Positions 11,101-31,005 of a DNA stretch of 31,005 nt are shown piece after piece (within the stretch, counting starts at the first letter, position 1; each line of letters starts with the position of its first letter). The position numbers were made by a program, and so were the translations under genes. A model generated the notes under the pieces. That model was not told the origin of the DNA. It made no database searches and saw nothing but the letters and a program-made list of their open reading frames with translations. Origin of the DNA: Promethearchaeota archaeon (GTDB lineage: Archaea; Asgardarchaeota; Lokiarchaeia; Sigyniarchaeales; SOKP01); assembly GCA_048940645.1 (NCBI GenBank), contig JBHLOI010000043.1, positions 1 through 31,005 of the forward strand, read 5' to 3'.

Positions 11101-11583
11101 TTACTTTATCAATGCAATTGATTCTTCGCAAAAATCATCTTGTCCGGTTCTGAATTTTTCAAGCTCATATTGTAAATTAGGGCTTAATTCTTTAACTAAA
11201 CTATTCATAAATGGTATAGCACTCCTCCGACAAAATGGTTCTGGGTCTAATCCCATCATTTTGGCAGCTTCATACACAGGGCATTTCCCTACTTTTATGC
11301 TAACTTTCTCCTCACTCTCTTTAAGAATCTCTGTATCAATACCAAATCCTTTAATAGCGCCTGAAGCTAAAAATGAAGCATTTTTTGGATTCATCTCTTT
11401 AATTTTTTCCCGTCTTGCTTGGCTTCTTGACATCTTACCTTGTAAAGCTCCCATGGTTTGACATGTTTCTTCAATCATATTATACGCTTTCTCCTCTCCA
11501 ATTTCCTTTACCACCGTACCTATAAAAGCATCTAATAAAATAAAAGCATTTTTCGCTCCATTAAACGTATCCTCAAGTGGAAT
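11101..11583 (-). CDS. ATC-hydrolase/V4R-like fold protein, probably initiating at ATT
   Basis: VGKCPVYEAA..C..DDFCEE cysteine pattern. The frame is open upstream of GTG 11514 (PLEDTFNGAKNAFILLDAFIGTV), and GAGGT lies 7 nt upstream of ATT 11583. Confidence 0.75.
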   Translation of the reverse strand: MPLEDTFNGAKNAFILLDAFIGTVVKEIGEEKAYNMIEETCQTMGALQGKMSRSQARREKIKEMNPKNASFLASGAIKGFGIDTEILKESEEKVSIKVGKCPVYEAAKMMGLDPEPFCRRSAIPFMNSLVKELSPNLQYELEKFRTGQDDFCEESIALIK

Positions 11584-12747: not shown

Positions 12748-13698
12748 TTATGCGTTGGATCTTTCCAAGATTAATCTTGCTAGAGCTTCAAATGTTTCTT
12801 CGATATTTTCCCCTGTTTCAACACTGCATTCAATAAAACCATCTAGCCCTCGTGATTTTGCAATTTTGATGCCTTCTTCAGCAGAAATCTGTTGATTATT
12901 AACCATATCCGAGATAATCCCCACAGCCATTATGGGGAATTCGACATCTGGTGTAATCTCGTTTCGAATAATTGTTAACCACTCATCAATACTCCTGATA
13001 GAAGATTCTTTATTCGCATCATAAATAAAAAGACCTCCTTTAGCACCTCGAACGTAAGTTGGAAGTAAAAATTTAAATCTTTCCTTTCCACCAAAATCCC
13101 ATAATTGTAATTTAACTTTCTTACCCCCAACATCTACAGTTTTAACTTCAAAATCGACACCTATCGTCATTTTTGAATCGGATACAAATAGATTTGTCAA
13201 GAATTTCTGAGTTAAATTTGCTCTTGCTACTTCTGGTTCACCAAACAGAACTATCTTAAAGGTAGTATCATACATCTTTCTAGTCTCATCTCTAACTTCT
13301 GGGGAATAACTGGCCGCTATGTATTTTTCTTCATCACCACGATATACAATTGCCGCTACAATCCCAAGCACAGCACTTGAAACCCATAATATCTCACTAA
13401 TTATCCCCAATATCGACACATCAACACAGATCGCAATTAGACTTATCACTAGAGAAATAATTCCATAGTAAGTAAACAAAAACCGCGTTAAGGGATAGTA
13501 AATATAGTAATGATAGTAAACATTTGAAGTTTGAACCGCGAGATAAACACCAAGAATACCTGATATTAACAATATTGAAAACAATATTCTGAGAGGAATA
13601 AGAACATCATTCGTTGGATCTGGGCTTAAAATACACGAAAAAATAATTAATTCAAGACTCAGAGTCCCCAATAAACTTGTTACACTGGAGTGTTTCAT
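12748..13698 (-). CDS. 4-TM membrane module fused to a degenerate Rab-like small GTPase domain
   Basis: N-terminal ~120 aa form hydrophobic helices. The C-terminal part reads FKIVLFG..MTIGVDF..KLQLWDFGGKERF..YVRGA..ECS..TGENIEETF. The P-loop reads GEPEVARA, with no GK[ST]. Confidence 0.88.
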   Translation of the reverse strand: MKHSSVTSLLGTLSLELIIFSCILSPDPTNDVLIPLRILFSILLISGILGVYLAVQTSNVYYHYYIYYPLTRFLFTYYGIISLVISLIAICVDVSILGIISEILWVSSAVLGIVAAIVYRGDEEKYIAASYSPEVRDETRKMYDTTFKIVLFGEPEVARANLTQKFLTNLFVSDSKMTIGVDFEVKTVDVGGKKVKLQLWDFGGKERFKFLLPTYVRGAKGGLFIYDANKESSIRSIDEWLTIIRNEITPDVEFPIMAVGIISDMVNNQQISAEEGIKIAKSRGLDGFIECSVETGENIEETFEALARLILERSNA

Positions 13699-14303
13699 TT
13701 CAGCATCTCTAAAACAAAATTAACCAATCTAATCTTAGCTAGAAAATCATTTCATAAAATACGACTTATATATCTATAAAATATAATTAACTTGTTCTTT
13801 AAAAAAATTAACCACATCTTTAATTTACGAAGAATTGGAATTTGAAAAAATTTTCCATTAAAATGTAATATTGGTCGATTCGCACCTAATTTCAAAATAA
13901 TTTATTTATTCCAAATATAAAAAAAGAGGTAAATAATTTGAATTAGTTACTATGGATTTTCATAGCATATTACGAAATCTAATTCTGTTAACTCATCTTT
14001 AGATGCTGTTGCTAATTATATTTCTACTTTATTTAAGGATTTACTTTTCTGTCAAAACTACCCTTCATTATTTCTATTTATAGAGGTATTAAATGTAGCT
14101 CAACAAAAAATATAATGATATCAGTATTTAATCAGAAAATTTTTCTTGAGTAATTATAGATTTTACAATTTATTCTTTAAAATCTTATAATACATTAGCA
14201 TTATTTTTATATATAATAGAATAAGACTTACCAATAGCAATTTCTTAAATGAATCCTTAAAAGTAGAAGTTGTTTCTGAAAAAAATAATCTAATGTGCTA
14301 TAC

Positions 14304-15335
14304 ATGCGCATATTGAAAATGCAATCAAAGTTTCTTGATGTGTTTCTAGAGACTCTGAATAAGTTTGGAAGTCTATATGGACCAATATACAAGAATGGCG
14401 TGCTGTCTTACGATAGGCTTGGAAATATCTCAGATCTAGTCGTCACTGATGAACATCCGATGATTCCTATAAAGAAACTCTTTCATCCAATGCATTTCAC
14501 AATGATGCATTTCAATGAAAAAGGTTTTACTCCAGACTATTCCATGATTGAGAAGAGAGTCGTGTTGGGAGTCCACCCCTGTGAGATCCATAGCATTCTC
14601 ATACTTGATGATATTTTCATGCGAGATCCGGTTGATCCATACTATGCAGGATTAAGACAGAATACAGCTATAGTGGGATTTTCCTGTCTTCCCACGGAGA
14701 ATTCATTGTGCTATTCAACAGATACGGATATTGTGGAAGAGGGATTTGACTTATTTTTTGTTAATCTTGGTGACTATTATTTGGTCTGGGTTGGTACGAG
14801 TCTAGGCCATGATATGATCTATGAGCGGGAAGAATTCTTTGATGAGAATGTCACTTATGATGATCTTCAGAGGTATGTAAAATGGCGGTATAAACGGAAT
14901 AAAATGTTCAAGAAGAGCTTTGAGTTTGATAGTATGCCTGACATCATGGAACTCAGCTATGAGAGTGAGGTCTGGAATGAATTCGCTAAGATATGCATAG
15001 CATGTGGTCAATGTACTATGGTTTGCCCAACATGTAATTGTTATAATGTGACTGATGTATTTGATGTCTCAAATGAAACAACAGGACGCCGAGATAGATA
15101 CTGGGACAGTTGCATGTTTGTCGATTACAGTCTAGTAGCAGGAGGGCATAACTTTCGAGCATCCCGCGCAGACAGACTCAGACTCTGGTATGGGCACAAA
15201 CTGAAAACATTTGGAAAAAACTATGGCCGCCCTGGTTGTGTAGGCTGCGGACGTTGTGTGGAAACATGTCCAGTTGAAATCAATGTCCTGACGGTCTCAG
15301 ATGCTCTAATTACAAAGGAGATGCCTAAGAAATGA
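14304..15335 (+). CDS. hydB: group 3b [NiFe] hydrogenase (sulfhydrogenase) beta subunit, 4Fe-4S
   Basis: GVHPCEI..D, CIACGQCTMVCPTCNC, RYWDSC, AGGHNFR and GCVGCGRCVETCP. First gene of a canonical beta-gamma-delta-alpha operon. Confidence 0.9.
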   Translation: MRILKMQSKFLDVFLETLNKFGSLYGPIYKNGVLSYDRLGNISDLVVTDEHPMIPIKKLFHPMHFTMMHFNEKGFTPDYSMIEKRVVLGVHPCEIHSILILDDIFMRDPVDPYYAGLRQNTAIVGFSCLPTENSLCYSTDTDIVEEGFDLFFVNLGDYYLVWVGTSLGHDMIYEREEFFDENVTYDDLQRYVKWRYKRNKMFKKSFEFDSMPDIMELSYESEVWNEFAKICIACGQCTMVCPTCNCYNVTDVFDVSNETTGRRDRYWDSCMFVDYSLVAGGHNFRASRADRLRLWYGHKLKTFGKNYGRPGCVGCGRCVETCPVEINVLTVSDALITKEMPKK

Positions 15336-16180
15336 GTGTGCTTGAATCAGTTGAGAACCCATTCAAACCAAAAGCTGCAAGGATAGTTCGGCATTATGAT
15401 CTTATAACCGATCACAGATTCTTCCAGATTCGGCATATAGACATGAAAAAAGCAATGTCTTTCTCTTATAATCCTGGTCAGTTTATAATGCTATCAATAC
15501 TTGGTATTGGCGAGTCACCATTTTCGATTTCATCCACACCCAGTCGCCCAGGTATTCTAGAATTGGGTGTTAGGAAGGTTGGAAAACTGACTGATGCTCT
15601 CTTCCAGAAGAAGGATAATGATGTGGTGTATATCAGAGGTCCTTATGGAAATGGCTTCAAACTAGATCAGATGGTTAATAGAGACCTCATCATTGTAGCT
15701 GGTGGACTCGGAGTCATTCCCGTTCGTTCAATCCTGTATTACGCCTTGGACAATAGAGACCAGTTCAAACAATTATTCTTCCTATATGGTACAAGAACAC
15801 CCTATGAGTTCTTGTTCAAAACTGAATTCTTCCAATTGAAAAAACGTGATGACATAGAGTGTTTGTATACTGTAGATAATCCAAATTCAGAGTGGACCGA
15901 GAATGTGGGTGTGGTGACGAAACTTTTAAAAAATCTTCCAGAAATAGATCCGCGTGAAACTACAGCTGTTGTGGTGGGACCTCCAGTCATGTACAAGTTT
16001 GTAATCGATGAGATCCTGAAATTAAAGATACCAAAGAACCAGATTCAATTATCACTTGAGAGACGAATGAAATGTGGAATTGGAAAATGTGGACACTGTG
16101 CCATTGAACATCTTTATACTTGTATGGATGGGCCAGTATTCACATACTGGGATACCTTACACTTCAGGGAGTTGATCTAA
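15332..16180 (+). CDS. hydG: group 3b hydrogenase gamma subunit (FAD/NAD(P)-binding, 2Fe-2S)
   Basis: PGQFIML, GESPFSISS, RGPYGNGF, VAGGLG, GPPVMYKFV and LERRMKCGIGKCGHC..CMDGPVF. Confidence 0.93.
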   Translation: MSVLESVENPFKPKAARIVRHYDLITDHRFFQIRHIDMKKAMSFSYNPGQFIMLSILGIGESPFSISSTPSRPGILELGVRKVGKLTDALFQKKDNDVVYIRGPYGNGFKLDQMVNRDLIIVAGGLGVIPVRSILYYALDNRDQFKQLFFLYGTRTPYEFLFKTEFFQLKKRDDIECLYTVDNPNSEWTENVGVVTKLLKNLPEIDPRETTAVVVGPPVMYKFVIDEILKLKIPKNQIQLSLERRMKCGIGKCGHCAIEHLYTCMDGPVFTYWDTLHFRELI

Positions 16181-16181
16181 A

Positions 16182-16976
16182 GTGACAGAAGCTAGTAAGA
16201 CTAGAAAACCTTCAGCAAAGCCGAAAGTGGGTATCTATGGCTTCACAGGATGTGCAGGAGATCAGCTTCTCCTTATCCATACCGAAGATGAAATTCTCAA
16301 CCTGTTTAATTCAGTAGACATGCGTTCTTTTGTGATGGCTTCGAGTAATCCAATTGAGGAGGAACTCGATATTGCATTCATCGAAGGTAGTATTAGTACG
16401 GAAGAGCAGAGAGAGCATATTCACAATATAAGAAAGAGAGCGAAAATTATAGTAGCTTTAGGTAATTGTGCTGTAAATGGGGGGCCGCAAGCAATGTGCA
16501 CTGGAGATGGTAGATTCGAGAAACGATTGAATAATATCTATGGGGATGCCGAGTTTTTTACAGATCCAATTGAAGCCAAGCCTGTTGATGCGATTGTTGA
16601 GGTAGATTACTATCTCCCTGGTTGTCCAATCAGCTCCCCACAAGCTTTCGCTCTGATCTCAAGACTTATACATGGCGTGATTCCAGAAACATTTCCTCAC
16701 CCCGTTTGCCATGAGTGCAAACTCAATGAGAATCGATGCCTACTGCTTGATAAGATAATCTGCTTCGGTCCATTGACGGCAGGTGGATGTGGATCAGCTT
16801 GTCCCAATCATGGACTCCCGTGCGTTGGTTGCTGGGGCCCAAATGAGGATGGAAACTTTGACTACCATCTTAAATTCTTAGAAAGTTTCGGAAAGTCAAG
16901 AGAAGAAATATTAAGGCTAATTAGAGGATATGGAGGCCATAAGATCCTCAAATTCATTGAAAAGGGAGGTAAATGA
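16182..16976 (+). CDS. hydD: group 3b hydrogenase delta (small) subunit
   Basis: GFTGCAGDQ, IEGSIST, GNCAVNGG, LPGCP and VCHECK..CLL..CFGPLTAGGCGSACP..CVGCWGP. Confidence 0.92.
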   Translation: MTEASKTRKPSAKPKVGIYGFTGCAGDQLLLIHTEDEILNLFNSVDMRSFVMASSNPIEEELDIAFIEGSISTEEQREHIHNIRKRAKIIVALGNCAVNGGPQAMCTGDGRFEKRLNNIYGDAEFFTDPIEAKPVDAIVEVDYYLPGCPISSPQAFALISRLIHGVIPETFPHPVCHECKLNENRCLLLDKIICFGPLTAGGCGSACPNHGLPCVGCWGPNEDGNFDYHLKFLESFGKSREEILRLIRGYGGHKILKFIEKGGK

Positions 16977-16977
16977 T

Positions 16978-18270
16978 ATGCCAAAGCAGAAAGAGATCAG
17001 GATAGAACCATTAGCCAGAGTCGAGGGGCATGGTGGTATCAGGGTAGAGATTGAAGGCGATAAAATCAGCAATGTCGAAGTCCGGATTCTTGAGGGACCA
17101 AGACTCTTTGAAACGCTTGTTGTGGGTAGGACACCACAGGAAGACATTAGTATTGTGCCTCGAATTTGCGCCATCTGCAATCTCTCTCACAAATATGCGG
17201 CTCTTCGAGGTCTGGAGAAAGCTCTAGGAGTGGAGATCGATTCAGCAACAAAATTGTATCGTCGACTAATGCAACTTGGCGAGATCATTGAGAGCCACAG
17301 CTTACATATCTACTTCCTTGCATTACCAGACTTCCTGGGTTATGACAATGCTATTGCAATGACCGATAAGTATGGAGATATTGTCACAAAAGCTCTGCAA
17401 CTTAAAAAATTCGGTAACAAGATTATGCAGATGATAGGTGGACGCATGATCCACGGTGAAAACCCGATCATTGGAGGATTCGGGAAGCTACCCACAAAAG
17501 TAGAGCTTATCAAGATTAAAGAGAAAGCATTGGAGTTGCTTCCGTTTGCCATTGAGACAATCAACCTTCTTGCAGAACTTGAGATTCCCGATCATATGGA
17601 AAGAGAAACACAATTCCTCTGCTGTAAACCTCCTCATGACGATTATGATTATTATGGCGATATACTCATCACTTCTGACGGTCAAGAGCATGATGTTGAG
17701 GATTATGGGTCAATAATCAAGGAGCGAGTTGTCAGTCATAGTTTTGCTAAGCGAGGCCGATACAAGGAAAAGTCATTTACCGTTGGGGCTCTCGCAAGAG
17801 TCTTACTTCTAGGTAATAGACTCAAGGGCAAGGCGAAGGAGGCTTATGATAAGTTTGTTAATGAAAGATGGCATTTCAATCCCTTATTCAACAATCACGC
17901 CCAAGCAATAGAGCAGATCTATTCACTGGAATGCATTCCAAAAATTGTGGATGATCTCCTTACCAACGCCAAATCAAAAATTGCCAAGCCCACAAAACAA
18001 ACAGGTTCTGGGACAGGAGTAGTTGAAGCGCCGCGAGGAACGTTGATTCATCATTATAAGGTCAAAGATGGCCTAATCTCCGCTGCCGACATCATAACAC
18101 CAACCTCAATGTTCCTCGATGATATTGAGGAGTTCATTCGAATGAGCGGTAATACACTTCTGGCAAAGAATCAGATTGACAAAATTGAGCTCGAATTTGA
18201 GAAGATAGCACGAGCCTATGATCCGTGTATTAGTTGCAGTGCCCATTTAGTGGAAGTCGTATACAAATAG
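16978..18270 (+). CDS. hydA: group 3b hydrogenase alpha (large, NiFe) subunit
   Basis: RVEGHG, L1 RICAICNLSH, EAPRGTLIHHY, and L2 DPCISCSAH plus a 7-aa cleavable tail. SD GGAGGT precedes ATG 16978. Confidence 0.95.
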   Translation: MPKQKEIRIEPLARVEGHGGIRVEIEGDKISNVEVRILEGPRLFETLVVGRTPQEDISIVPRICAICNLSHKYAALRGLEKALGVEIDSATKLYRRLMQLGEIIESHSLHIYFLALPDFLGYDNAIAMTDKYGDIVTKALQLKKFGNKIMQMIGGRMIHGENPIIGGFGKLPTKVELIKIKEKALELLPFAIETINLLAELEIPDHMERETQFLCCKPPHDDYDYYGDILITSDGQEHDVEDYGSIIKERVVSHSFAKRGRYKEKSFTVGALARVLLLGNRLKGKAKEAYDKFVNERWHFNPLFNNHAQAIEQIYSLECIPKIVDDLLTNAKSKIAKPTKQTGSGTGVVEAPRGTLIHHYKVKDGLISAADIITPTSMFLDDIEEFIRMSGNTLLAKNQIDKIELEFEKIARAYDPCISCSAHLVEVVYK

Positions 18271-21970: not shown

Positions 21971-23920
21971 ATGAGATTTGAGGAAATAGATGAAGATCAA
22001 TCGGAAGAGGAAAGGTTAGAAAAAGAACTACTTGAAAGAGAAGCCCTCGAAAAAGAAAGGCTTGAAAAAGAAAGAATCGAAAAGGAAAGACTAGAAAGGG
22101 AAAGACTCGAAAAAGAGAGATTTGAAAAATTGAAAATGGAAAGCAAATTATATCCCAATAACTCGCTGTTTATGATCCCAAGTTGGAGTGATTTATTAGG
22201 GTATCCCTCATTAGGAACCTATGTCCATCATCCCGTCTCAAAAATAGAGACGGACAGCGTTATATTTTTTAGTGGTTATGATTATTCAATTGAAACTAAT
22301 AAAGGAACTCTTCATTACTTATTTGGCCTTGGGTATTATTTCCTTAAATTTGAATTGGAATCCGGCAAGTATATAACCGATAATAGAATCCTCACAGGAT
22401 TAGTGTTATCAGACTTTGTTTATGATCTAATGGCTACTTCAACAAATATCACTTTAGAAGAGGATCGCGACGTAATTATCGCAGAAAAAGTGATAAAAGT
22501 CCCTATTGATTTGTCTTATAAATCAGAGGATCACTTAACCTTTATCAAGGGTGCATTGATGCGAAATATGTTCATACCTCATAAAGATATCTTTTTAGAG
22601 ATGCTGGAACGAATACGTAAGGAGGATTCATATCCCATCTCAAGTGAGGGCCATAAGATTCTAAGTTCACATTGGGACTTTTATAACCAAATTTTGGTTT
22701 CTGAGAAAATGAGAGCTATCGCTGATTCATCTTACCTCAATCCAACAGCAGGATTAGAAGGGATAACCTTCGCGGCAGATACGCTTTTAGAGGGAACCAT
22801 CTCTCAAATAAATCTCAGCATTATTGAAGATAATATTAAAACCTTGAAAATGATTTATTCTAATCTTGAATTTGATCCCATGTATCTATTCTCGATAATA
22901 GAACAAGCGGGTTTAATTTTAAGATCGGATCTACCACCAATCTCTTCACAGCGAGACTCAAGTACATCGAAAGCGTCATTGTTCGTTTCAGCCGAAGATC
23001 GCCTTTATTCATTTATCAGTTGGCCAATACAATTTAAAAGAAAAGCAAAAGAACCTTTTGTATCACCTAGCATCGTAGAACAACCCATTATTCCTGAAAA
23101 AATTGAAATTCCAAGTTCCGATTTTAGAACCCCGGAAATACGAGAAATTGAACTAGAGCCATTTAAATTGGACACTTTAAAATCTGAAACTGTCGAATTT
23201 AAACCATTACCTCCTCCGCCTAAAGCAGATATTAACCAAATCCTTCTCTATTTAAAAAAAGTAATCGAAGAAAATTATGAAATGCGATCTATTGGACAAG
23301 CTTTTGAAATCGCGAGAGAAAGTGCACGACAAATGGGTGTGAGCGCAACCACATTACACCAGAAAAAAGTGTGGGAAATGAGTAAATATGCCAATATTTA
23401 CATTAAAAAAGAATCAGGCTTCGGATTATCAGAAAAAGAAAAAGGGGATTTAACTCGAAAAATCGATGAATGGATTTTTGAGATTGCGGAAAGGGAAAGA
23501 TTGGAAAAAGAACGACTAGAAAGAGCGCGTCTAGAGAAAGAAAGGCTAGAAAGATTAGAGCGAGAAAGAAAAGAGAGAGAAAGGCTAGAGAAGGAGAGGA
23601 AAGAACGTGAGCGGCTGGAGCAAATTCGCATCGAAAAAGAACGATTAGCCCAAGAACAATTAGAAAAAGAAAAATTAGAAAAAATAGAAAGAGAGAAGCA
23701 AGAAGTTCTAAGATTAGAGAGAGAACGAATAGAAAAGGAACAACAAGAACTAGAAGCAATTGAAAGAGAAAAACAGGAACTAAAAAGACTGAAACTAGAA
23801 AGAAAACAAAAAGAAAAAGCAGCAAAACAAGAAGCAAAAAAACGAAAAAAGTTAGAAAAACAAAAGAAAAAACTAGAAAAAAAGAAGTTAAAGGAACAAG
23901 AAAAGTTGGGAAACCTCTGA
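21971..23920 (+). CDS. hypothetical protein with N- and C-terminal E/K/R-rich (LEKER)n helical repeats
   Basis: Pentapeptide (L/I)E(K/R)ER repeats at both ends, a globular centre, a Pro-rich linker and a Lys-rich tail. Confidence 0.85.
   Translation: MRFEEIDEDQSEEERLEKELLEREALEKERLEKERIEKERLERERLEKERFEKLKMESKLYPNNSLFMIPSWSDLLGYPSLGTYVHHPVSKIETDSVIFFSGYDYSIETNKGTLHYLFGLGYYFLKFELESGKYITDNRILTGLVLSDFVYDLMATSTNITLEEDRDVIIAEKVIKVPIDLSYKSEDHLTFIKGALMRNMFIPHKDIFLEMLERIRKEDSYPISSEGHKILSSHWDFYNQILVSEKMRAIADSSYLNPTAGLEGITFAADTLLEGTISQINLSIIEDNIKTLKMIYSNLEFDPMYLFSIIEQAGLILRSDLPPISSQRDSSTSKASLFVSAEDRLYSFISWPIQFKRKAKEPFVSPSIVEQPIIPEKIEIPSSDFRTPEIREIELEPFKLDTLKSETVEFKPLPPPPKADINQILLYLKKVIEENYEMRSIGQAFEIARESARQMGVSATTLHQKKVWEMSKYANIYIKKESGFGLSEKEKGDLTRKIDEWIFEIAERERLEKERLERARLEKERLERLERERKERERLEKERKERERLEQIRIEKERLAQEQLEKEKLEKIEREKQEVLRLERERIEKEQQELEAIEREKQELKRLKLERKQKEKAAKQEAKKRKKLEKQKKKLEKKKLKEQEKLGNL
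22010..22135 (+). repeat. coding 15-bp/5-aa degenerate tandem repeat (LEKER)
   Basis: ERLEKELLEREALEKERLEKERIEKERLERERLEKERFEK. Confidence 0.8.
23485..23800 (+). repeat. coding degenerate tandem repeat (LEKER/RKERE)
   Basis: ERERLEKERLERARLEKERLERLERERKERERLEKERKERERLEQ... Confidence 0.8.
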
Positions 23921-24296
23921 TTAGGAATTTAAAATATGGAATGACTAATCATGCCAAACAATTCTCTTTTCGGATATCAACTTAATTTAAAACCTTATAA
24001 TCTTTTTTATTTAAACTTGAACTTATTATTTAGATCTTTGTAAAACCACTTATTACCAAATTACACAGAGTGACATTTTAGATATGGGGATAAGTAAAAT
24101 ATTAATTGGGTTATTAGCTATACAATTTTATTAAAATACATCGTTTCCACAAATTGGACAGTACTTTTGCCCTTTAGGTAATTTATTCGACATCGCGGAC
24201 AATATCATCTCATTCGAGTATTATTTATGATAAGTAGTCTATTAAAACCTATAACAAGAATAAAAATTATAATGTCAGCTATATAGGATAAAAACA

Positions 24297-26138
24297 TTAT
24301 TTTATTTTTCCAAAAAATTTTTGAACTAAAAAACTTAAGTCTTTCCAATTATCAAGATCAGTAGAACTTTCTTCTATATTATTGATAAGATCTTTATAAT
24401 TTATATCAAATTCTTGAATTAATGCCTTCAATTTTCTTTCAAATATAAATATATTTTCTTTTACAATCAGCACAAAGACGACATCTTTTGTATAATTTAA
24501 ATTAAATATTATTACTCGATCACCATGATCTATTGATCTAATTTGAGTTTCACCCTTAAGAATTGCTTTTAAAATGGTCATTAATCCAATTATTCCCCCA
24601 GAAATTAAAGAAGAATCACTATTTCTTTCCAATTTATTAAAAGTACAATCAAATAAAGGTAACCCAGACTTATAAATTATATAAAGATGGATTAGGTCAT
24701 CTCTCCATTCTTTTAATGGTAAATGAATTTTAAATGTAGAATAATTTTCATTATCTCCTGAGTCTATAAGAATTTGACCATTATGTAAATCCACAATTTG
24801 TTTAGAAAAGGAAAGTTCTTGAAATATATCATTTTCATTATATTGGCATAATTGACCTCTTATCTCTATTTCTCCAAAATCATTCACTTTTTTTAGATTA
24901 ATTAAAATATTTTGATTATTAGTATTCCTTCCTATATAGGAAATTATTTCTTTAATTACCTGTTTAATTCTTATCTTATCTAATTCAGAATATAAATCTT
25001 CAGAAAATTTTCTATTAGTTTTTATCTTCTGTAACTGTACTTTATCATTTACTGAATCAAGTAATTCCATTATTACCTCAACTAAACTTTCAATTTGTTT
25101 GTTTAATATTAATTTATCAGATTCTATTTTAGAAATGTTTACTATTTTTCCAACTAAATCTAATGATTTTTCTCCCTCATTTTTAATCAATTCTAAGAGT
25201 TTTATCGCATCCAAATCTAATTTATCCTTATAAGAATTTAAAAGGATATCAGTAGCGTTTGACAACACATTCAGGGGATTTCTTAATTGTTCTGAAGCTT
25301 TAGTGGTCATACTTTTTTTTATGTTATCGAAATCCTTAAGTCTTTTATTTTCTTCTCTAACGATTCTTTCTGCGAGTATTCTTTCAGTAATATCCTGAAA
25401 CATAACTTGTACAAATTTGCTGTCTCCAATTTCAACATTAGAGAAAAATGCTTCTAACCAAGATTTACTATTATTTTTATTTATAATTTCAAACTCTCTA
25501 ATTTCACTCAAACCAAAATCAAGAACATTTTGAAATATTTCTTCTAAAGAATCCATTTGTTTTTCATTTATTTGTAAAATATCAAATAAATACATATCTT
25601 TTAAACCACTCTTATTTCTATTTAGATATAACTCAGCAGAACTATTACAATCATATATTCGTTTTCTAGAATCCAATAAAATTATTGAATATGGAAAATT
25701 TTCGACCAAATTTCGAAATTTTTCTTCTGATTCTTTTAAAGTAATTTCTTTTTTTTTCCATTCAGATATATCTCTTCCAATTTTAACAATTTGTTCTATA
25801 TCACCTCTCTCATTCTTAATTGGATAGGCTTGTATCTCTAAATGTATTATATTCTCATTAACATAATGGTTGTGAATAGAATTACTGAATTTCCCAGTTT
25901 TTAAAACCTCTTCAACAGGGCATTTATATTCTGGTGATTTGCAAACTTTATTTCTTTCATGAGTTACTTTATAACATTTATTTCCTATGATTTGCTCTCT
26001 ATTAACACTATATTTTAAGCAAAAAGATTTATTCACACCTTTTATTGTAAAATCTTTGTCTAAAATCATTATTTCATCATATATAGAATCTAGAATAGTT
26101 TTAATGAGTTTATTTTCTTGTTCTATATTAAATTCCAT
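24297..26138 (-). CDS. PAS-PAS pseudo-histidine kinase with C-terminal longin-like domain
   Basis: Two PAS domains. H-box SEQLRNPL has no His, and the ATPase domain lacks N/G1/G2 boxes. C-terminal LIHLYIIYKSGLPLF..DSSLISGGIIGL..IRSIDHGD..FVLIVKE. SD AGGTGA precedes ATG 26138. Confidence 0.82.
   Translation of the reverse strand: MEFNIEQENKLIKTILDSIYDEIMILDKDFTIKGVNKSFCLKYSVNREQIIGNKCYKVTHERNKVCKSPEYKCPVEEVLKTGKFSNSIHNHYVNENIIHLEIQAYPIKNERGDIEQIVKIGRDISEWKKKEITLKESEEKFRNLVENFPYSIILLDSRKRIYDCNSSAELYLNRNKSGLKDMYLFDILQINEKQMDSLEEIFQNVLDFGLSEIREFEIINKNNSKSWLEAFFSNVEIGDSKFVQVMFQDITERILAERIVREENKRLKDFDNIKKSMTTKASEQLRNPLNVLSNATDILLNSYKDKLDLDAIKLLELIKNEGEKSLDLVGKIVNISKIESDKLILNKQIESLVEVIMELLDSVNDKVQLQKIKTNRKFSEDLYSELDKIRIKQVIKEIISYIGRNTNNQNILINLKKVNDFGEIEIRGQLCQYNENDIFQELSFSKQIVDLHNGQILIDSGDNENYSTFKIHLPLKEWRDDLIHLYIIYKSGLPLFDCTFNKLERNSDSSLISGGIIGLMTILKAILKGETQIRSIDHGDRVIIFNLNYTKDVVFVLIVKENIFIFERKLKALIQEFDINYKDLINNIEESSTDLDNWKDLSFLVQKFFGKIK
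25767..26078 (-). repeat. duplicated PAS-coding segment, copy A
   Basis: 87/104 aa identical, ungapped, to 27340..27651 (manual count). Confidence 0.9.
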
Positions 26139-26157
26139 GTAAATATCACCTGAAAAA

Positions 26158-27714
26158 TTAAACTGTGACTTTTTTAGCATTATTTTTTGTTCCATCACAT
26201 ATTTCGGGATATAACATTTCAAATAAAATGATAAAATTGCTACCCTTAGTATAATCATCCTTAACTTTATTTTCGACCCAGATTTTCCCATTATAGCTTT
26301 CTATTATCTTTTTTACAAGTGATAATCCTATTCCTAAACTTCTAATTGAATTATTTTTATTTTTATGGCCTCGTTTGAAAGCTATTTCCTTAAATTGATC
26401 TGGAATTCCTCTCCCATTATCAATAAATTCCATTTTAAGATACTCTTTACCATCTTTATGTTCTCTTGATATTTTGATTGATATCTCAATTATAGAATTA
26501 TCATTATGTCTTATAGCATTCAATAAAATATTTTCAAATAAATCAATTAAGAGATTGTTTGCTTTAATGTAAAATGTTTCATTTGGGGGTTCTATTTGTA
26601 TGATAATTTTTTTTCCTTGGAAACTTTTGATAATATATTCAATTGATTGTCTTAAAACGCCATAAACTTCTATTGGTGTAAAATTACTTTTATCATCTTC
26701 AATTTCAGAAAGTGTTCTAACATTTGATATCAAATTCTCGGCTCTTTTAATTTGCTCTTTAGCAATCTCGAACAATTTTTCTACATGTTCACTTTTCGTA
26801 GGTTTTTTTTGATATAATGGTAATAGCTCTATAAATGACAAAAAAAATTGTAAAATATTGTTAATATCATGAGTAAAAATATCCTTATACAAATTAGCTC
26901 GATTATAAGCGCTCCGATATCGTTTTTCTGATTCTTTCAAGATAAGTTCTGCTTTTTTACGTTCAGATACATCCCTTATTATATCAATTACTGCTGGTTG
27001 ACCCTTAAAATTTAGAATAGGTGTGCAACTATATTCAAAATGTTTTTTTTCAGTCTTACTTGAATTAAAATAAATTAATTCATATCTTTTATGTGCATTA
27101 TAATTATCTGATAATTTGTTAAATGAACAATGCTCGCATATCTCTTCATTATTTGTTAAAACTTTATAGCATTCTTTTCCAATTTGGTAACTTCCAAACA
27201 TTTTTTCTGCTTTTTTGTTCATATAAAAAATTTTCAAATCTTTTGAAATAACTACAATTGAATCATTTGTATTTGATAGTATTAAATTCAATTCTTTTTC
27301 AGATTCCTTGATTTCTTGTTCAATTTTCATTCGTTTAGTGATATCCCTTCCAATTTTAACGATTTGTTCTATACTACCTCTCTCATTCTTAATCGGATAG
27401 GCTAATATCTCTAAATATATTATGTCCTCATAAATATGATGATTGTGAATAGAATTACTGAATTTTCCAGTTTTTAAAACCTCTTCAACCGGACATTCAC
27501 ATTCTGGTGATTTACAGACGTTATTTCTCTTATGAGTTACTTTATAACATTTATTTCCTATGATTTGCTCTTTATTAACACCATATTTTAAGCAAACAGT
27601 TTTGTTCACATCTTTTATTGTAAAATCTTTATTTAAGATCATTATTTCATCAGATATGGAATCAAATATTGATCTTAAGTTCTGCTCTTGCTGACTTTTT
27701 TGTTTTTTTCTCAT
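26158..27714 (-). CDS. PAS-PAS sensor histidine kinase
   Basis: Two Cys-containing PAS domains. H-box FTHDINNILQ, N-box ENILLNAIRHN, G1 DNGRGI, G2 LGIGLSLVKKI, and GSNF. Confidence 0.93.
   Translation of the reverse strand: MRKKQKSQQEQNLRSIFDSISDEIMILNKDFTIKDVNKTVCLKYGVNKEQIIGNKCYKVTHKRNNVCKSPECECPVEEVLKTGKFSNSIHNHHIYEDIIYLEILAYPIKNERGSIEQIVKIGRDITKRMKIEQEIKESEKELNLILSNTNDSIVVISKDLKIFYMNKKAEKMFGSYQIGKECYKVLTNNEEICEHCSFNKLSDNYNAHKRYELIYFNSSKTEKKHFEYSCTPILNFKGQPAVIDIIRDVSERKKAELILKESEKRYRSAYNRANLYKDIFTHDINNILQFFLSFIELLPLYQKKPTKSEHVEKLFEIAKEQIKRAENLISNVRTLSEIEDDKSNFTPIEVYGVLRQSIEYIIKSFQGKKIIIQIEPPNETFYIKANNLLIDLFENILLNAIRHNDNSIIEISIKISREHKDGKEYLKMEFIDNGRGIPDQFKEIAFKRGHKNKNNSIRSLGIGLSLVKKIIESYNGKIWVENKVKDDYTKGSNFIILFEMLYPEICDGTKNNAKKVTV
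27340..27651 (-). repeat. duplicated PAS-coding segment, copy B
   Basis: Paralogous to 25767..26078. Confidence 0.9.
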
Positions 27715-27749
27715 ATTCTCACTATTTAATTTATTTTTATTCTTATAGG

Positions 27750-28667
27750 TTATTTTAATATTTTTTTAAAATCTAGAAATTTTTTTTCATTAAATATTTC
27801 TTTTTCTTTCTGATAAAACTTACAACTCTGCTTTTCCAAGCCAGTCACGTAAATGCATTTCTTAGCACACCAATAGAGACCAGTTGGATTAGGATTGTAA
27901 GCAAATTTACAATCTGAAGAGATAAATTCTTTTTTTCCCTCTCTCCAATTAAAGTAATCAAACATTCTTCGACAGAAAATTTCAGAATTTTCATCAAATG
28001 GATAACTCATTATACAATGTGTTCCAATTTTAGTTTTCCTTAATTTTACAGGAATAAATCCTAATGTGTTAAAGAATTTTAGTTTATATTGCTCACAATT
28101 CGCTACTAATAAAAATAGATAAAATTCATTATAACTCTCAATTTCTTGTTCAATTATAAATTGAAATAATTTTGAGCCTAATCCTCTTCTTCTATAATTC
28201 TTTTTAATCTCGATAGTATCTAAATAATAAAGATATACTCCATTATATATCGATAAAAATATTAAATTCAAACAACCAATTATTTCATTGAATCCATTAA
28301 AAATATAATGAGTCTTACTCATATATCCATAATACCAATCTTCTGAATCCTCACAATTTTCTAATAATTTAGCGGGTAATTCATCTTTTCGATATATTTT
28401 AAATTCATAATCTTTTAACAAAAGATTCCAATAAAGTTTGCTCTTATCTAAAATATTTTTGTAGCGTTCTTTTGAGCAATAGTTAGTTCTTAAATCTATA
28501 GAATAACTATTTAATAAAGCTAATGGATATAATCGATCTTTTTTTTTTTCTACAGTTAATACTGATTTTTTTCGAATATAAGGTATATTAAGCCCTAAAT
28601 AGTCATTTAAAATCTCAAAATTAATAATTTGATTTTTATTTTTCTCTTCATGGGTTTTTAATATCAT
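27750..28667 (-). CDS. GNAT family N-acetyltransferase with C-terminal Cys-rich domain
   Basis: YLDTIEIKKNYRRRGLGSKL (acetyl-CoA motif A) and KFFNTLGF. C-terminal SDCKFA..GLYWCAKKCIYVT..EKQSCKFY. Confidence 0.85.
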   Translation of the reverse strand: MILKTHEEKNKNQIINFEILNDYLGLNIPYIRKKSVLTVEKKKDRLYPLALLNSYSIDLRTNYCSKERYKNILDKSKLYWNLLLKDYEFKIYRKDELPAKLLENCEDSEDWYYGYMSKTHYIFNGFNEIIGCLNLIFLSIYNGVYLYYLDTIEIKKNYRRRGLGSKLFQFIIEQEIESYNEFYLFLLVANCEQYKLKFFNTLGFIPVKLRKTKIGTHCIMSYPFDENSEIFCRRMFDYFNWREGKKEFISSDCKFAYNPNPTGLYWCAKKCIYVTGLEKQSCKFYQKEKEIFNEKKFLDFKKILK

Positions 28668-28799
28668 TAAGGAATCCCTTTTGATAATAGTGTGTATCTG
28701 AAACGATAATCTTTTAATTTAATTAAACTAATTGATATTATTTACATAATTTTTACTTCCTTTTTTGGTAAGTCTATACTGAATGATTTAATTATAAAT

Positions 28800-29258
28800 T
28801 TACGATAAATAAACCAATTTACTCTTATTCTCGATATTTTTACTTTTCTCCAGAGTTGAGAAATAATTTGATAATTTAATAATTGTTTGATTTAATTCAA
28901 ATAGAATTATAGCTAAATTCAAATATATTGGAAATATTACTGAAATCATAATTTCATTATTGATTGATTCAAGAATAATCATAAATCCATTATCATCTAG
29001 TTGATTTCCAGCTTGAATCTTAATTTGTTTTACGAAATTGCGATTTTTTATTATATCAAGACCATTTTCAGCTAAAGAAATTACTCCAGCACAGATAGCT
29101 CCTATAGATTGAAAATAATCATCGTCTTCATTGAAATTACCTTGATCTACAGCTATTATAAAACCATCTTCAGTAAATAAGAAAGAGCTCGTAATGTCTG
29201 TATGTTCTCTAAAAGCTTTCAAAATATAACTAATATTCTTTTCTGTTAAATTATACAT
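28800..29258 (-). CDS. roadblock/LC7 (MglB/LAMTOR-like) domain protein
   Basis: ITSSFLFTEDGFIIA, SIGAICAGVISLAE, and LAIILFEL in the C-terminal helix. Overlaps the GTPase stop by 8 nt. Confidence 0.82.
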   Translation of the reverse strand: MYNLTEKNISYILKAFREHTDITSSFLFTEDGFIIAVDQGNFNEDDDYFQSIGAICAGVISLAENGLDIIKNRNFVKQIKIQAGNQLDDNGFMIILESINNEIMISVIFPIYLNLAIILFELNQTIIKLSNYFSTLEKSKNIENKSKLVYLS

Positions 29259-29901
29259 CTAAAACGGACACCTCATCTTTAGATATAATTTTTTCAGAAT
29301 TTCCATTTAAAATAATTTTGAGGACAGCAATAATAGCATCTTTTATTCCAATATTACATTTAGCAGATCCTTTATATACTACTTCACCTACTAGATTTTT
29401 AATCATTTCGATGTCATGGTAATCTTCTCTATCAGATTTATTAGCAATAATTTTCATAGGAATATTATATCCTAAACCTGTTCTTGTTTCCTCTAATATA
29501 ACTAATGCATTTCCAATATTAGCTAAATCACAGCCATCTATTAATAAAATAACACCATCGCTCCCTTTTGCTAATATTTTTCTAACTGAAGCAAATTGCA
29601 TTTGTCCAGGACACCCTTTTAATTCTAAATCCATAATATGCCACCCAGAATATTCGTCCTTATCTCTCAAATATTCAGTTTTGCTCATTATTAAACCGTT
29701 CGTCTCAAAATTTAAATTTGGTCTTGCCCAAATCAATCTTGCTAAATCAAAACCAGTAGTAGTATGGGTTTTATCTTTGTCAAATGGTATATTTAGTTCT
29801 TTTTCCACAGAAATTGCTTTATTATCAAGAGTATGGATTAAAGTTGTTTTACCCGAATTAAAAAATCCAGTTATAAAAATTTTTATTTTATTATTTAACA
29901 T
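29251..29901 (-). CDS. small GTPase, MglA/CvnD-like
   Basis: G1 GFFNSGKTT, G2 TTTGFD, G3 GCPGQ, G4 NKSD and G5 SAK. Confidence 0.9.
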   Translation of the reverse strand: MLNNKIKIFITGFFNSGKTTLIHTLDNKAISVEKELNIPFDKDKTHTTTGFDLARLIWARPNLNFETNGLIMSKTEYLRDKDEYSGWHIMDLELKGCPGQMQFASVRKILAKGSDGVILLIDGCDLANIGNALVILEETRTGLGYNIPMKIIANKSDREDYHDIEMIKNLVGEVVYKGSAKCNIGIKDAIIAVLKIILNGNSEKIISKDEVSVLDV

Positions 29902-30251
29902 TTCACAAATCTTTATTATTTTTCTATATTTTCATAAAAAAAATTATATTTAGAATATTTTATTTCAAAATCTTTTTCTTTTACCGTAAAATTAATATAT
30001 ATTTTTTTATTTAAATTTATTTTTTTAAGAGAATTATTATAAAAATCTTTTAAATTATAACGAATCCGTAGAGTAATAAACATATTTTATAATAATCTTT
30101 ATTAAAAACTTTTTTTCCTTATGAAAAAATTTATATACAAATTATTTCATTACTTTTTCGTATAGAAAAATAATGATTTAAAAAAAATTCTTAAAAAAAA
30201 TTGAATAAAATTATAAAAAATATAAAAAACAGATTAAATAGATGACAAATA
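29902..30251. promoter_or_regulatory. extremely AT-rich divergent intergenic region (probable bidirectional promoters)
   Basis: Lies between two divergent operons and has several TTTATATA/TTAATATA-like boxes. Individual TATA boxes cannot be pinned down. Confidence 0.45.
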
Positions 30252-30722
30252 ATGCCAAATTATAAACAATTGTTAGATATTTCAAATGCAACATTAGTTG
30301 CAATGGGAAAAGCTATGATCAACATGGGTTTAAATATTCCATTAGTTTGGAATGAATGTGCAAATGTGTTTGAAAATAGTGCAAAAAATCTTTTAAAAGA
30401 TGCTGGTATGGTAATTGAAGGTAATGATGTTCAATCGATAACTGAAAATTTTGCTAAGAAGGTAAAAGAAATGGGATTCTGCCAAAGAGCTGATATTCTA
30501 GAACTCAGCGATGAAAAGCTTGTTATGGATCTTGGAGAATGTATCTTTGCTTCGGCTACAACTGTTTTTAGAGGTAATGATCGAAATTTTATACCTCCGT
30601 GTCCATTTATGTCAATGTTATATAGCACAATTGCAGAAAAAACAGGGAAAATCGGCTATATAGAATCTTGTCAATGGAAACCTGAAGAGAATACATCAAT
30701 TTTTACTGTAAAGTTAGAATAA
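30252..30722 (+). CDS. V4R/MetOD-like (Bet3/H-NOX-related fold) protein
   Basis: Helical N-terminal half, then LVMDLGECIF..PPCPFMSML..IESCQW..SIFTVKL cysteine pattern. Confidence 0.65.
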   Translation: MPNYKQLLDISNATLVAMGKAMINMGLNIPLVWNECANVFENSAKNLLKDAGMVIEGNDVQSITENFAKKVKEMGFCQRADILELSDEKLVMDLGECIFASATTVFRGNDRNFIPPCPFMSMLYSTIAEKTGKIGYIESCQWKPEENTSIFTVKLE

Positions 30723-30741
30723 ATTAGGAGTGATGAAAAAC

Positions 30742-30870
30742 ATGGCGCAATCAGATTGTAAGTATGCTGGAGTTGAAAATTCTGATGGTTTAATATGGTG
30801 CGAGAAGAAAAATATCTATGTAACTGCGAAGGAGAAGGATACATGTGAATTTTATGAGAAAAAGAGTTAA
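30742..30870 (+). CDS. 42-aa three-Cys microprotein, homologous to the GNAT C-terminal domain (not in ORF track)
   Basis: MAQSDCKYAGVENSDGLIWCEKKNIYVTAKEKDTCEFYEKKS*. SD AGGAGTGA lies upstream, and the ORF fills the gap between two co-oriented genes. 22/37 identity to 27807..27917. Confidence 0.85.
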   Translation: MAQSDCKYAGVENSDGLIWCEKKNIYVTAKEKDTCEFYEKKS

Positions 30871-30885
30871 TGAGGAGGGAAAAAA

Positions 30886-31005
30886 ATGAGTGCAAAACAA
30901 GAAAAAATACAAGAAATATTATTAGAATTAGAAAAAAATTCAGAAGTGTCAAATAGTGCTCTAGTATCATTGAAAGGACAGATGATGGCAAGTGCTCTCC
31001 ATAAA
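30886..31005 (+). CDS. roadblock/LC7 domain protein, N-terminal part (runs off the window)
   Basis: SD GAGGAGG; reads MSAKQEKIQEILLELEKNSEVSNSALVSLKGQMMASALHK (helix + SALVSxxGxMMAS). Confidence 0.78.
   Translation, partial: MSAKQEKIQEILLELEKNSEVSNSALVSLKGQMMASALHK

Follow-up and report, generated by a model that had tools for sequence, protein, structure and literature searches.

A kinase-longin protein as a probable adaptor between a two-component relay and an MglA-type GTPase/roadblock module in a two-armed locus of Lokiarchaeia

Do the histidine kinases and the small-GTPase regulators that are encoded side by side at the end of a lokiarchaeal contig belong to one signalling pathway and, if so, which protein joins them? 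The question is raised by positions 24297-31005 of contig JBHLOI010000043.1 (hereinafter C85), from a metagenome-assembled genome of a Loki-type Asgard archaeon (3.83 Mb, 30% GC); the window analysed here is the entire contig of 31,005 nt. A preliminary description of these genes had proposed a new signalling system coupling two-component kinases, acetylation and proto-eukaryotic GTPase regulators, an interpretation that is partly supported by the analysis reported below. The organization, conservation and domain structure of the genes point, in our opinion, to a two-component relay that is probably, though by no means certainly, joined to an MglA-type GTPase/roadblock module via a catalytically dead kinase-longin adaptor, the whole forming a two-armed locus of Lokiarchaeia.

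The open reading frames (ORFs) of this region were found at the positions previously assigned to them, and all the domain assignments were confirmed when ORFs and domains were checked. On the minus strand the genes follow one another in the order GTPase, RoblA, GNAT, HK1 and HK2, and the divergent plus arm comprises, within the window, a Bet3/V4R-fold protein of 156 amino acids, a 3-Cys microprotein and the start of RoblB. The features, with the evidence for each, are the following:

29251..29901, minus strand: MglA-like small GTPase, 216 amino acids (motifs, Pfam, family profile)
28800..29258, minus strand: RoblA, roadblock/MglB-like protein, 152 amino acids (profile search; Pfam below cut-off)
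27750..28667, minus strand: GNAT acetyltransferase with a C-terminal 3-Cys domain, 305 amino acids (Acetyltransf_1)
26158..27714, minus strand: HK1, intact, apparently cytosolic PAS-PAS histidine kinase, 518 amino acids (Pfam and H, N, G1 and G2 boxes)
24297..26138 (likeliest start), minus strand: HK2, pseudokinase-longin (PAS-A, PAS-B, His-less DHp, CA remnant, longin)
24300-24716, minus strand: longin domain of HK2 (predicted fold, Foldseek, VIA)
29902..30251, no strand: divergent intergenic region (two blocks kept among five orthologous loci)
30252..30722, plus strand: Bet3/TRAPPC3-V4R-fold protein, 156 amino acids (predicted fold)
30742..30870, plus strand: 3-Cys microprotein, 42 amino acids from the likely start, the frame opening at 30730 (alignment)
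30886..31005, plus strand: 5' part of RoblB, a roadblock protein of 121 amino acids when complete, whose remainder lies on contig C75 (L001:7599-7919, minus strand)

The protein on which the answer depends is HK2. Its neighbour HK1 is composed of two Cys-rich PAS domains (PAS-A and PAS-B), a HisKA/DHp domain (FTHDINN) and a HATPase_c domain, with the H, N, G1 and G2 boxes intact. In HK2, PAS-A and PAS-B are followed by a DHp domain devoid of the phospho-acceptor His (the H-box reads SEQLRNPL), by a degenerate remnant of the CA domain and by a C-terminal longin domain, so that the suspected coupling of a kinase-type protein to the fold of a GTPase regulator exists here as a physical fusion. In 14/14 proteins compared (HK2 and 13 relatives) the His is replaced (SE[QEK]L[KR]xPL), with the N, G1 and G2 boxes likewise degenerate; as judged from these motifs, HK2 is a member of a conserved pseudokinase lineage. 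Its likeliest start is M52 (position 26138), the orthologues being 608-615 amino acids long and the longer frame (to 26291) overlapping HK1. The DHp domain of HK2 gives an alignment score of 132 with that of a second kinase, a five-PAS protein encoded beyond the contig end (see below), of 52 with HK1 and of 43 with the receiver protein of the locus. As previously noticed, HK1 and HK2 have a PAS domain in common: their PAS-A domains are 78% identical and Cys-rich (C[YF]KxTH...C...PECxCP). Gene conversion between the two copies was considered and set aside, since it is weakly supported by an identity of 67-92% within the same locus versus 77-85% between orthologues. Hydrophobic segments are absent from every kinase of the locus and no membrane anchor was seen; all the proteins of the locus appear to be cytosolic.

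The C-terminal 140 amino acids of HK2 are predicted to fold as beta-beta-alpha-beta-beta-beta-alpha, with a predicted local distance difference test (pLDDT) score of 75. Among the top Foldseek and VIA matches listed (50 shown), this region resembles longin domains only, with VIA Z values of 13.3 to Fuzzy (root-mean-square deviation 2.7 A, 123 residues aligned) and 13.2 to Sec22b and further matches to AP sigma subunits, TRAPPC4, Mon1-Ccz1 and BLOC-3. It is thus similar to the longins of the guanine nucleotide exchange factors (GEFs) Fuzzy-Inturned, Mon1-Ccz1, BLOC-3 and TRAPP; neither NPRL2 nor FLCN figures among the 50 structures shown, and Pfam gave no match to the domain. Members of the same longin family occur elsewhere as fusions with MFS transporters and with a single PAS domain (P0047, P0030, P0033, P0024), the transporter-longin proteins being reminiscent of eukaryotic transceptors; in P0001, a protein of 4579 amino acids and probably a repeat protein, a 38-residue piece of the longin profile was matched 69 times.

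Is this set of genes kept together? The GTPase family occurs in at least 87 of 400 Asgard genomes, a lower bound given that 7 of about 25 candidates were scored per genome, and its distant relatives are found in Archaeoglobi, ANME-2, Methanoperedenaceae and Micrarchaeota. The organization of the locus was compared over 50 stretches, i.e., 49 further loci, whose ORFs were matched to the proteins of the window. Outside the window's family, a co-directional core cassette was disclosed, made up of the V4R-like protein, the microprotein, RoblB, the GTPase, RoblA/C and a short roadblock protein resembling P486 (described below); it is widespread in Asgard archaea and is held also by the closed genome of Candidatus Harpocratesius repetitus (L050/L100). 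In the window's family these genes are instead distributed over two divergent arms. A pseudokinase-longin lies beside it at 13 family loci (listed: REF85, REF36, L033-L043, L046, L073), and in L045 and L080, both of genome G150, there is a longin devoid of PAS and DHp; among the family loci with that side assembled, the pseudokinase-longin is missing only from L082. Of the 11 family loci whose sequence extends to the region of the receiver, 10 have a receiver with a convergent kinase, L045 being without them within the 4 kb available. The GNAT-Cys gene is found in most family loci and a TFB paralogue in many sister loci. The apparent absence of the GTPase from some genomes with a pseudokinase-longin is partly due to contig ends (G207).

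A paralogous second locus is harbored by the same genome, on contig C36 (L002:7823-17655), with a GTPase 69% identical to that of the window. Its genes are arranged in the order GTPase, RoblA, TFB paralogue and PAS-pseudokinase-longin, the TFB gene replacing those of GNAT and HK1, and its divergent arm contains RoblB, RoblC, a P486-like protein of 494 amino acids, an ORF of 129 amino acids and a receiver protein with an RHH-DHp-REC architecture, faced by a convergent kinase. Three clades, {C85, L033-L037}, {C36, L046} and {L038, L039}, recur with support in four trees (GTPase, RoblA, RoblC and P486); the RoblB tree recovers the two small clades {C36, L046} and {L038, L039}, and the receiver tree (a quick tree) both small clades and {C85, L034, L035}. 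The same clades being present in six gene trees, both arms were therefore inherited and duplicated as a unit, and the conservation of the neighbourhood across Asgard genomes, which the preliminary description had left to be checked, is borne out. In addition, contig C160 of G150 contains, directly behind the GTPase gene, a single frame of 288 amino acids (L080:3384-4250, minus strand) in which RoblA (residues 4-143) is fused to an HK2-type longin (151-285), an arrangement in favour of a joint function of RoblA and the longin.

These data bear on the explanation that the genes are neighbours by chance or in genome islands, without any functional tie. The patchy distribution of the GTPase family and the variation of the accessory genes (HK1, GNAT, TFB) among loci might be read in its favour; the same order, however, recurs across genera, the same clades appear in the six gene trees, the whole locus has been duplicated and parts of it are joined by domain fusions. 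Moreover, the genome as a whole contains only about 17 loci for kinase catalytic domains and about nine receiver loci, and the two GTPase loci together account for three intact kinases, two pseudokinases and two receivers; with so low a background density of kinase and receiver genes a chance adjacency is unlikely. We therefore disfavour this explanation and hold it to be highly improbable.

According to the preliminary description, no receiver domain was visible and a GTPase switch took the place of a response regulator as the output. The first statement is true within the window, but only by virtue of the contig end. An exact overlap of 77 nt links the end of C85 to the start of the reverse-complemented contig C75, and the join is sound because L034 and L035 show the whole order on single contigs. 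On C75 (L001) the plus arm continues with the rest of RoblB, RoblC, P486 (a coiled-coil protein of 486 amino acids with a roadblock domain), an RHH-DHp-REC protein and the convergent five-PAS histidine kinase. The receiver protein (286 amino acids, L001:4491-5351) is thus encoded in the same arm about 2.5 kb past the window end, which contradicts the second statement; a receiver beyond the window edge is the very finding that the preliminary description had named as grounds for its refutation. It matches HisKA and Response_reg (1e-22), and both its Asp motif (LLDIILPD) and its His (SHDLKEPLT) are intact. A profile of its N-terminal part matches RHH/CopG proteins, at first ORF56 (2k9i, 0.006) and then 2kel, 6iya and 9kkd, and the protein is probably an RHH-DHp-REC transcription regulator. 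The five-PAS kinase (HisKA 2e-14, HATPase_c 1e-23) is intact as well. Taken as two-component proteins, HK1 carries the H, N, G1 and G2 boxes, the five-PAS kinase its HisKA and HATPase_c domains and the off-window receiver its Asp; HK2 is defective in all four boxes.

The N-terminal module of the receiver was detected in 130/135 genomes of the family, and the RHH-DHp-REC arrangement seems to be the standard receiver architecture of the lineage. Five full-length copies exist in this genome, only the two at the GTPase loci adjoining a kinase; the other three are located on C86 (14571-15990) and C54 (8779-9081), two of them in tandem, with no kinase catalytic domain within 8 kb. The presence of such a protein raises the possibility of a conventional two-component control only, in which the relay switches the transcription of the GTPase/roadblock operons without any link to the GTPase at the protein level. 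This explanation accounts for a receiver with a likely DNA-binding RHH domain facing a kinase, for a receiver family so common in the lineage and present here in five copies, and for the TFB paralogue of many sister loci. It also agrees with the divergent intergenic region (29902-30251), where two blocks, each with a TATA-like element (TTTAAAT; TTTATATA), are kept in the five orthologous loci/genomes compared; they read CCGTAAtATTAATAT...TTTATTTAAATTTATTTTTTT and CTTATAGAAAGATTTATATATA...TTTTTCGTATAaAAAAA and may represent putative promoters or operator sites. An ORF of 55 amino acids in this region (29916-30083) was discarded as a part of the system, no counterpart existing at related loci. 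What a purely conventional control leaves unexplained is the loss of the His and of the ATP boxes in 14/14 members of the HK2 group, in which PAS, DHp and the fused longin are nonetheless kept, and the RoblA-longin fusion found directly after a GTPase gene. It is therefore considered as rather unlikely, even if it is the most serious of the alternatives.

To which family does the GTPase belong? Its motifs are GFFNSGKT (G1), TTTGFD (switch I), GCPGQ without Asp (G3), NKSD (G4) and SAK (G5), in agreement with the family pattern (G1 GxxxxGKT, invariant TT..FD switch I, G3 GxPGQ, G4 NKxD, G5 SAK), and G96, G99 and Q100 of the G3 motif are invariant or nearly so across 25 relatives. Pfam gave only weak GTP_EFTU, Arf and Ras matches, and the family profile retrieved from the PDB an Asgard Arf-like protein (8oun, 4e-16), Arl3 (8e-14) and MglA (1e-13). 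Membership of the Arf family was rejected, as the N-terminal amphipathic helix is absent (the P-loop starts from residue 12) and G3 is devoid of the Asp expected in DxGGQ. The sequence K-T-H-T-T-T-G-F-D contains no Arg before the G2 Thr, i.e., no intrinsic switch-I Arg, which fits MglA groups 2-5, and on these motifs we regard the GTPase as MglA-like, with groups 2-5 understood as in PMC4316618. By its G3 motif without Asp it is of the prokaryotic MglA type and not Rag-, Arf- or Rab-like, contrary to the proto-eukaryotic character formerly ascribed to it. The two genes GTPase and RoblA share 8 nt where the former stops and the latter starts, and RoblA provides the co-encoded MglB/roadblock protein that characterizes the MglA family; its Pfam match (Robl_LC7, 8.5e-4) is below cut-off, and the RoblA/RoblC profile matches an Asgard roadblock protein (7f8m, 1e-10), MglB (3e-6) and CvnB5 (7e-4). 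Altogether, five roadblock/longin regulator domains are encoded at the locus, and the identification of roadblock, longin and Bet3/V4R folds was confirmed by profile and structure matches.

The Bet3/V4R assignment relies on the predicted structure of the 156-amino-acid protein (30252-30722; pLDDT 91), which adopts the Bet3/TRAPPC3-V4R-H-NOX fold and resembles TRAPPC3/Bet3, YslB, H-NOX and the V4R domains of MopR/PoxR; the model matches 6aq3 at 2e-4, and 7yh3 (Thor TRAPPC3), 5fru and 3njc with template modelling (TM) scores of 0.58-0.59. Only the fold search gave matches: Pfam (V4R and TRAPP_Bet3 included) searched with 19 members of the V4R-like family, and a PDB profile search with the family, gave nothing. 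Only Cys97 and Cys117 are near-invariant, a four-Cys zinc site being known in Thor-TRAPPC3 and PoxR. The microprotein encoded behind it has C10, W23-C24, K26 and C39 as invariant residues, its likeliest start is at 30742 (42 amino acids) rather than at the frame opening (30730), and the protein atlas contains only unnamed clusters of 41-43 amino acids for it. Searches of Pfam and NCBIfam gave nothing for either the V4R-like protein or the microprotein, and for P486 only a weak roadblock match. The Cys domain that had been seen to tie the two arms together was recovered: the microprotein and the tail of the GNAT protein (approximately 27810-27932) share 54% identity (tblastn 1e-7 to 3e-10; phmmer 9e-12). 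The GNAT domain itself is above cut-off (Acetyltransf_1, 3.8e-7), with the acetyl-CoA motif RRRGLGSKL (R/Q-x-x-G-x-G/A). Sister loci harbor a longer HEAT-repeat-GNAT-3-Cys protein of 421-495 amino acids (L038:10865-12352, L042:11063-12526, L043:1515-2780); the HEAT repeats were, on this evidence, lost from GNAT in the window's clade.

In MopR, PoxR and DmpR the V4R fold serves as a sensor that binds ligands, and this leads to a third alternative, in which the information flows in the reverse direction: the V4R/3-Cys proteins and the roadblocks would set the state of the GTPase, GTPase-GTP would bind the HK2 longin as its effector, and the DHp of HK2 would modulate the five-PAS kinase or the receiver, with transcription as the output. 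The cassette of V4R, 3-Cys, roadblock and GTPase is older and wider spread than the kinase genes, and the DHp of HK2 is closest to that of the five-PAS kinase, both points in favour of such a flow; HK2, however, retains two PAS sensor domains of its own, suggesting a direct signal input. A reverse flow appears to us improbable.

The reading that we prefer, a relay joined to the GTPase module by HK2, might work as follows. A core cassette of V4R/Bet3, 3-Cys, roadblock, GTPase, roadblock and roadblock genes would have been split into divergent arms and wired to the relay. A metal, redox or small-molecule signal would be sensed by the Cys-rich PAS domains, to which the V4R/3-Cys pair may perhaps be added. 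The metal/redox nature of the signal is suggested by the cysteine patterns; these were the only basis of the redox/metal-sensing pathway proposed earlier, and the one solved PAS-A relative found (3lyx) is without the cysteines, no precedent for a metal site in the Cys-rich PAS-A having emerged among the structure relatives searched. HK1 and the five-PAS kinase would phosphorylate the RHH-DHp-REC protein and thereby change transcription, as in an ordinary phosphorelay. HK2, which combines the sensor PAS of HK1 with a DHp closest to the one in the five-PAS kinase, would act as a dead adaptor, whose longin, brought into a dimer, might pair with RoblA and bind the GTPase, either altering its nucleotide state, as a GTPase-activating protein (GAP) or GEF, or reading it. 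The GNAT enzyme would be docked by its 3-Cys tail at whatever the microprotein binds and would acetylate a component there; tail and microprotein probably have a docking site in common, for which they might compete or which they might share, the simplest candidate being the Bet3-fold protein, whose gene precedes that of the microprotein. The GTPase switch and transcription are likely both outputs. A more specific proposal can be advanced only tentatively: a kinase lineage may have lost catalysis and become a signal-controlled longin regulator, in which PAS- or receiver-driven changes of the DHp set a longin/roadblock platform that switches the GTPase (GAP/GEF), with the docked acetyltransferase as a second layer.

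Several observations weigh against the adaptor reading. HK1 is present at only five family loci and is hence an accessory part; the sister type represented by C36 does without GNAT, V4R, microprotein and PAS-A and has a TFB paralogue instead; the longin model is of moderate confidence (pLDDT 75), and the RHH match of the receiver is marginal (E 0.006). Furthermore, the receiver family is the general type of the lineage, so that an ordinary two-component system acting on transcription could be enough to account for the intact kinases.

How far is such an arrangement already known? In the actinobacterial conservon, a CvnA kinase is associated with a CvnB roadblock, a CvnC protein (DUF742) and a CvnD GTPase of MglA group 2 (PMC4316618). 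The locus resembles it in that a protein of histidine-kinase type is combined, within one conserved operon, with a roadblock and with a GTPase of MglA type that has no Asp in G3, and in the profile match of its roadblock to CvnB5. It differs in that its kinases are cytosolic PAS proteins without transmembrane segments, HAMP or a C-terminal LPxR (the C-terminus of HK1 was checked), that the kinase-like partner is His-less and fused to a longin, and that five roadblock/longin domains, a Bet3/V4R-fold protein, a 3-Cys microprotein, a GNAT and a receiver are added. No match to DUF742 was found among the locus ORFs scanned of C85, C75 and C36, and, with DUF742 and an LPxR/HAMP kinase absent, membership of the conservons was rejected. 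The MglA-MglB polarity module of Myxococcus and Thermus (RomR receiver, Frz input) is similar for its GTPase with a PGQ-type G3 adjoining a roadblock and for the input from a receiver-domain pathway; unlike it, the locus has a GTPase without intrinsic Arg at the position of MglA R53, as in groups 2-5, several distinct roadblocks and an archaeal host, and no motility genes.

Asgard longins fused to two-component domains are also in print, in the text accompanying Fig. 5c of Liu et al. (bioRxiv 10.1101/2020.10.19.343400), who surmise that growth in Asgard archaea is controlled via two-component systems with 'eukaryotic' regulators. HK2 is one such fusion, here in a fixed operon with one MglA-like GTPase; the portion of their text considered here gives no GTPase partner, pseudokinase status or operon (bioRxiv 10.1101/2020.10.19.343400), and the NPRL2/FLCN longin subtype named in it could not be confirmed for HK2. 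The general idea is therefore already in print, and the logic of the locus is a variant of that of the conservon and of MglA-MglB; to speak of a new signalling system, as had been done, is too strong in view of the conservons (PMC4316618) and of the fusions described in that part of the preprint (bioRxiv 10.1101/2020.10.19.343400). What is new for this locus is the off-window receiver and kinase, the conserved pseudokinase status of HK2, the likeness of its DHp to that of the five-PAS kinase, the paralogy of the whole locus, the recurring clades and the RoblA-longin fusion. A full-text literature search revealed no paper joining these kinases, the longin and the MglA-like cassette.

The eukaryotic Fuzzy-Inturned, Mon1-Ccz1, BLOC-3, TRAPP (Bet3 and longins) and Ragulator complexes bring together the same folds, with multiple roadblock pairs and a Bet3 fold matched at TM 0.55-0.59; there is, however, no family membership at the sequence level, the GTPase is MglA-like and not Rab/Rag, and the locus proteins are apparently cytosolic. 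Structures of Asgard roadblock proteins, Rab/small GTPases and TRAPPC3 were solved by Tran et al. in 2024 (PMC10933270), who reported that the GTPase genes of MK-D1 are generally outside operons with roadblock, longin and TRAPPC3 genes and that partners are hard to assign (PMC10933270). The protein kinds are the same as here (RoblA/C profile to 7f8m, 1e-10; V4R-like model to 7yh3), the difference being that this locus is a GTPase operon with such regulators. Asgard archaea possess dozens of small GTPases, roadblocks and longins, and the locus names testable partners for one GTPase, a fixed inherited set that includes the GTPase, named roadblocks, a dead-kinase longin, a Bet3-fold protein with its 3-Cys partner and a receiver with its kinase. 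The steering of 'eukaryotic' GTPase regulators by two-component systems becomes testable with a handful of recombinant proteins. If the more tentative proposal of a signal-controlled longin regulator is true, the locus would represent a direct prokaryotic relay from a two-component system to a small GTPase and a living model of the way in which longin/roadblock regulators were placed under signal control before eukaryotes.

Elsewhere in the window, two minus-strand stretches, 12748-13698 and 11101-11514, are of note for a Ras/Rab-like GTPase (Ras 2e-36) with an N-terminal extension of about 145 amino acids, in whose vicinity an ATC_hydrolase-like protein and a radical SAM protein are encoded. 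A four-gene operon at 14295-18270 (plus strand) resembles a group-3 [NiFe] hydrogenase, its products being a 4Fe-4S dicluster protein, an FAD/NAD protein and the small and large subunits. The gene for a protein of 649 amino acids upstream of the locus (21971-23920, plus strand) was excluded as a part of the system, having no counterpart at related loci; its product has no Pfam match, and the AT skew of this stretch is very high (0.41 at 23001-24000).

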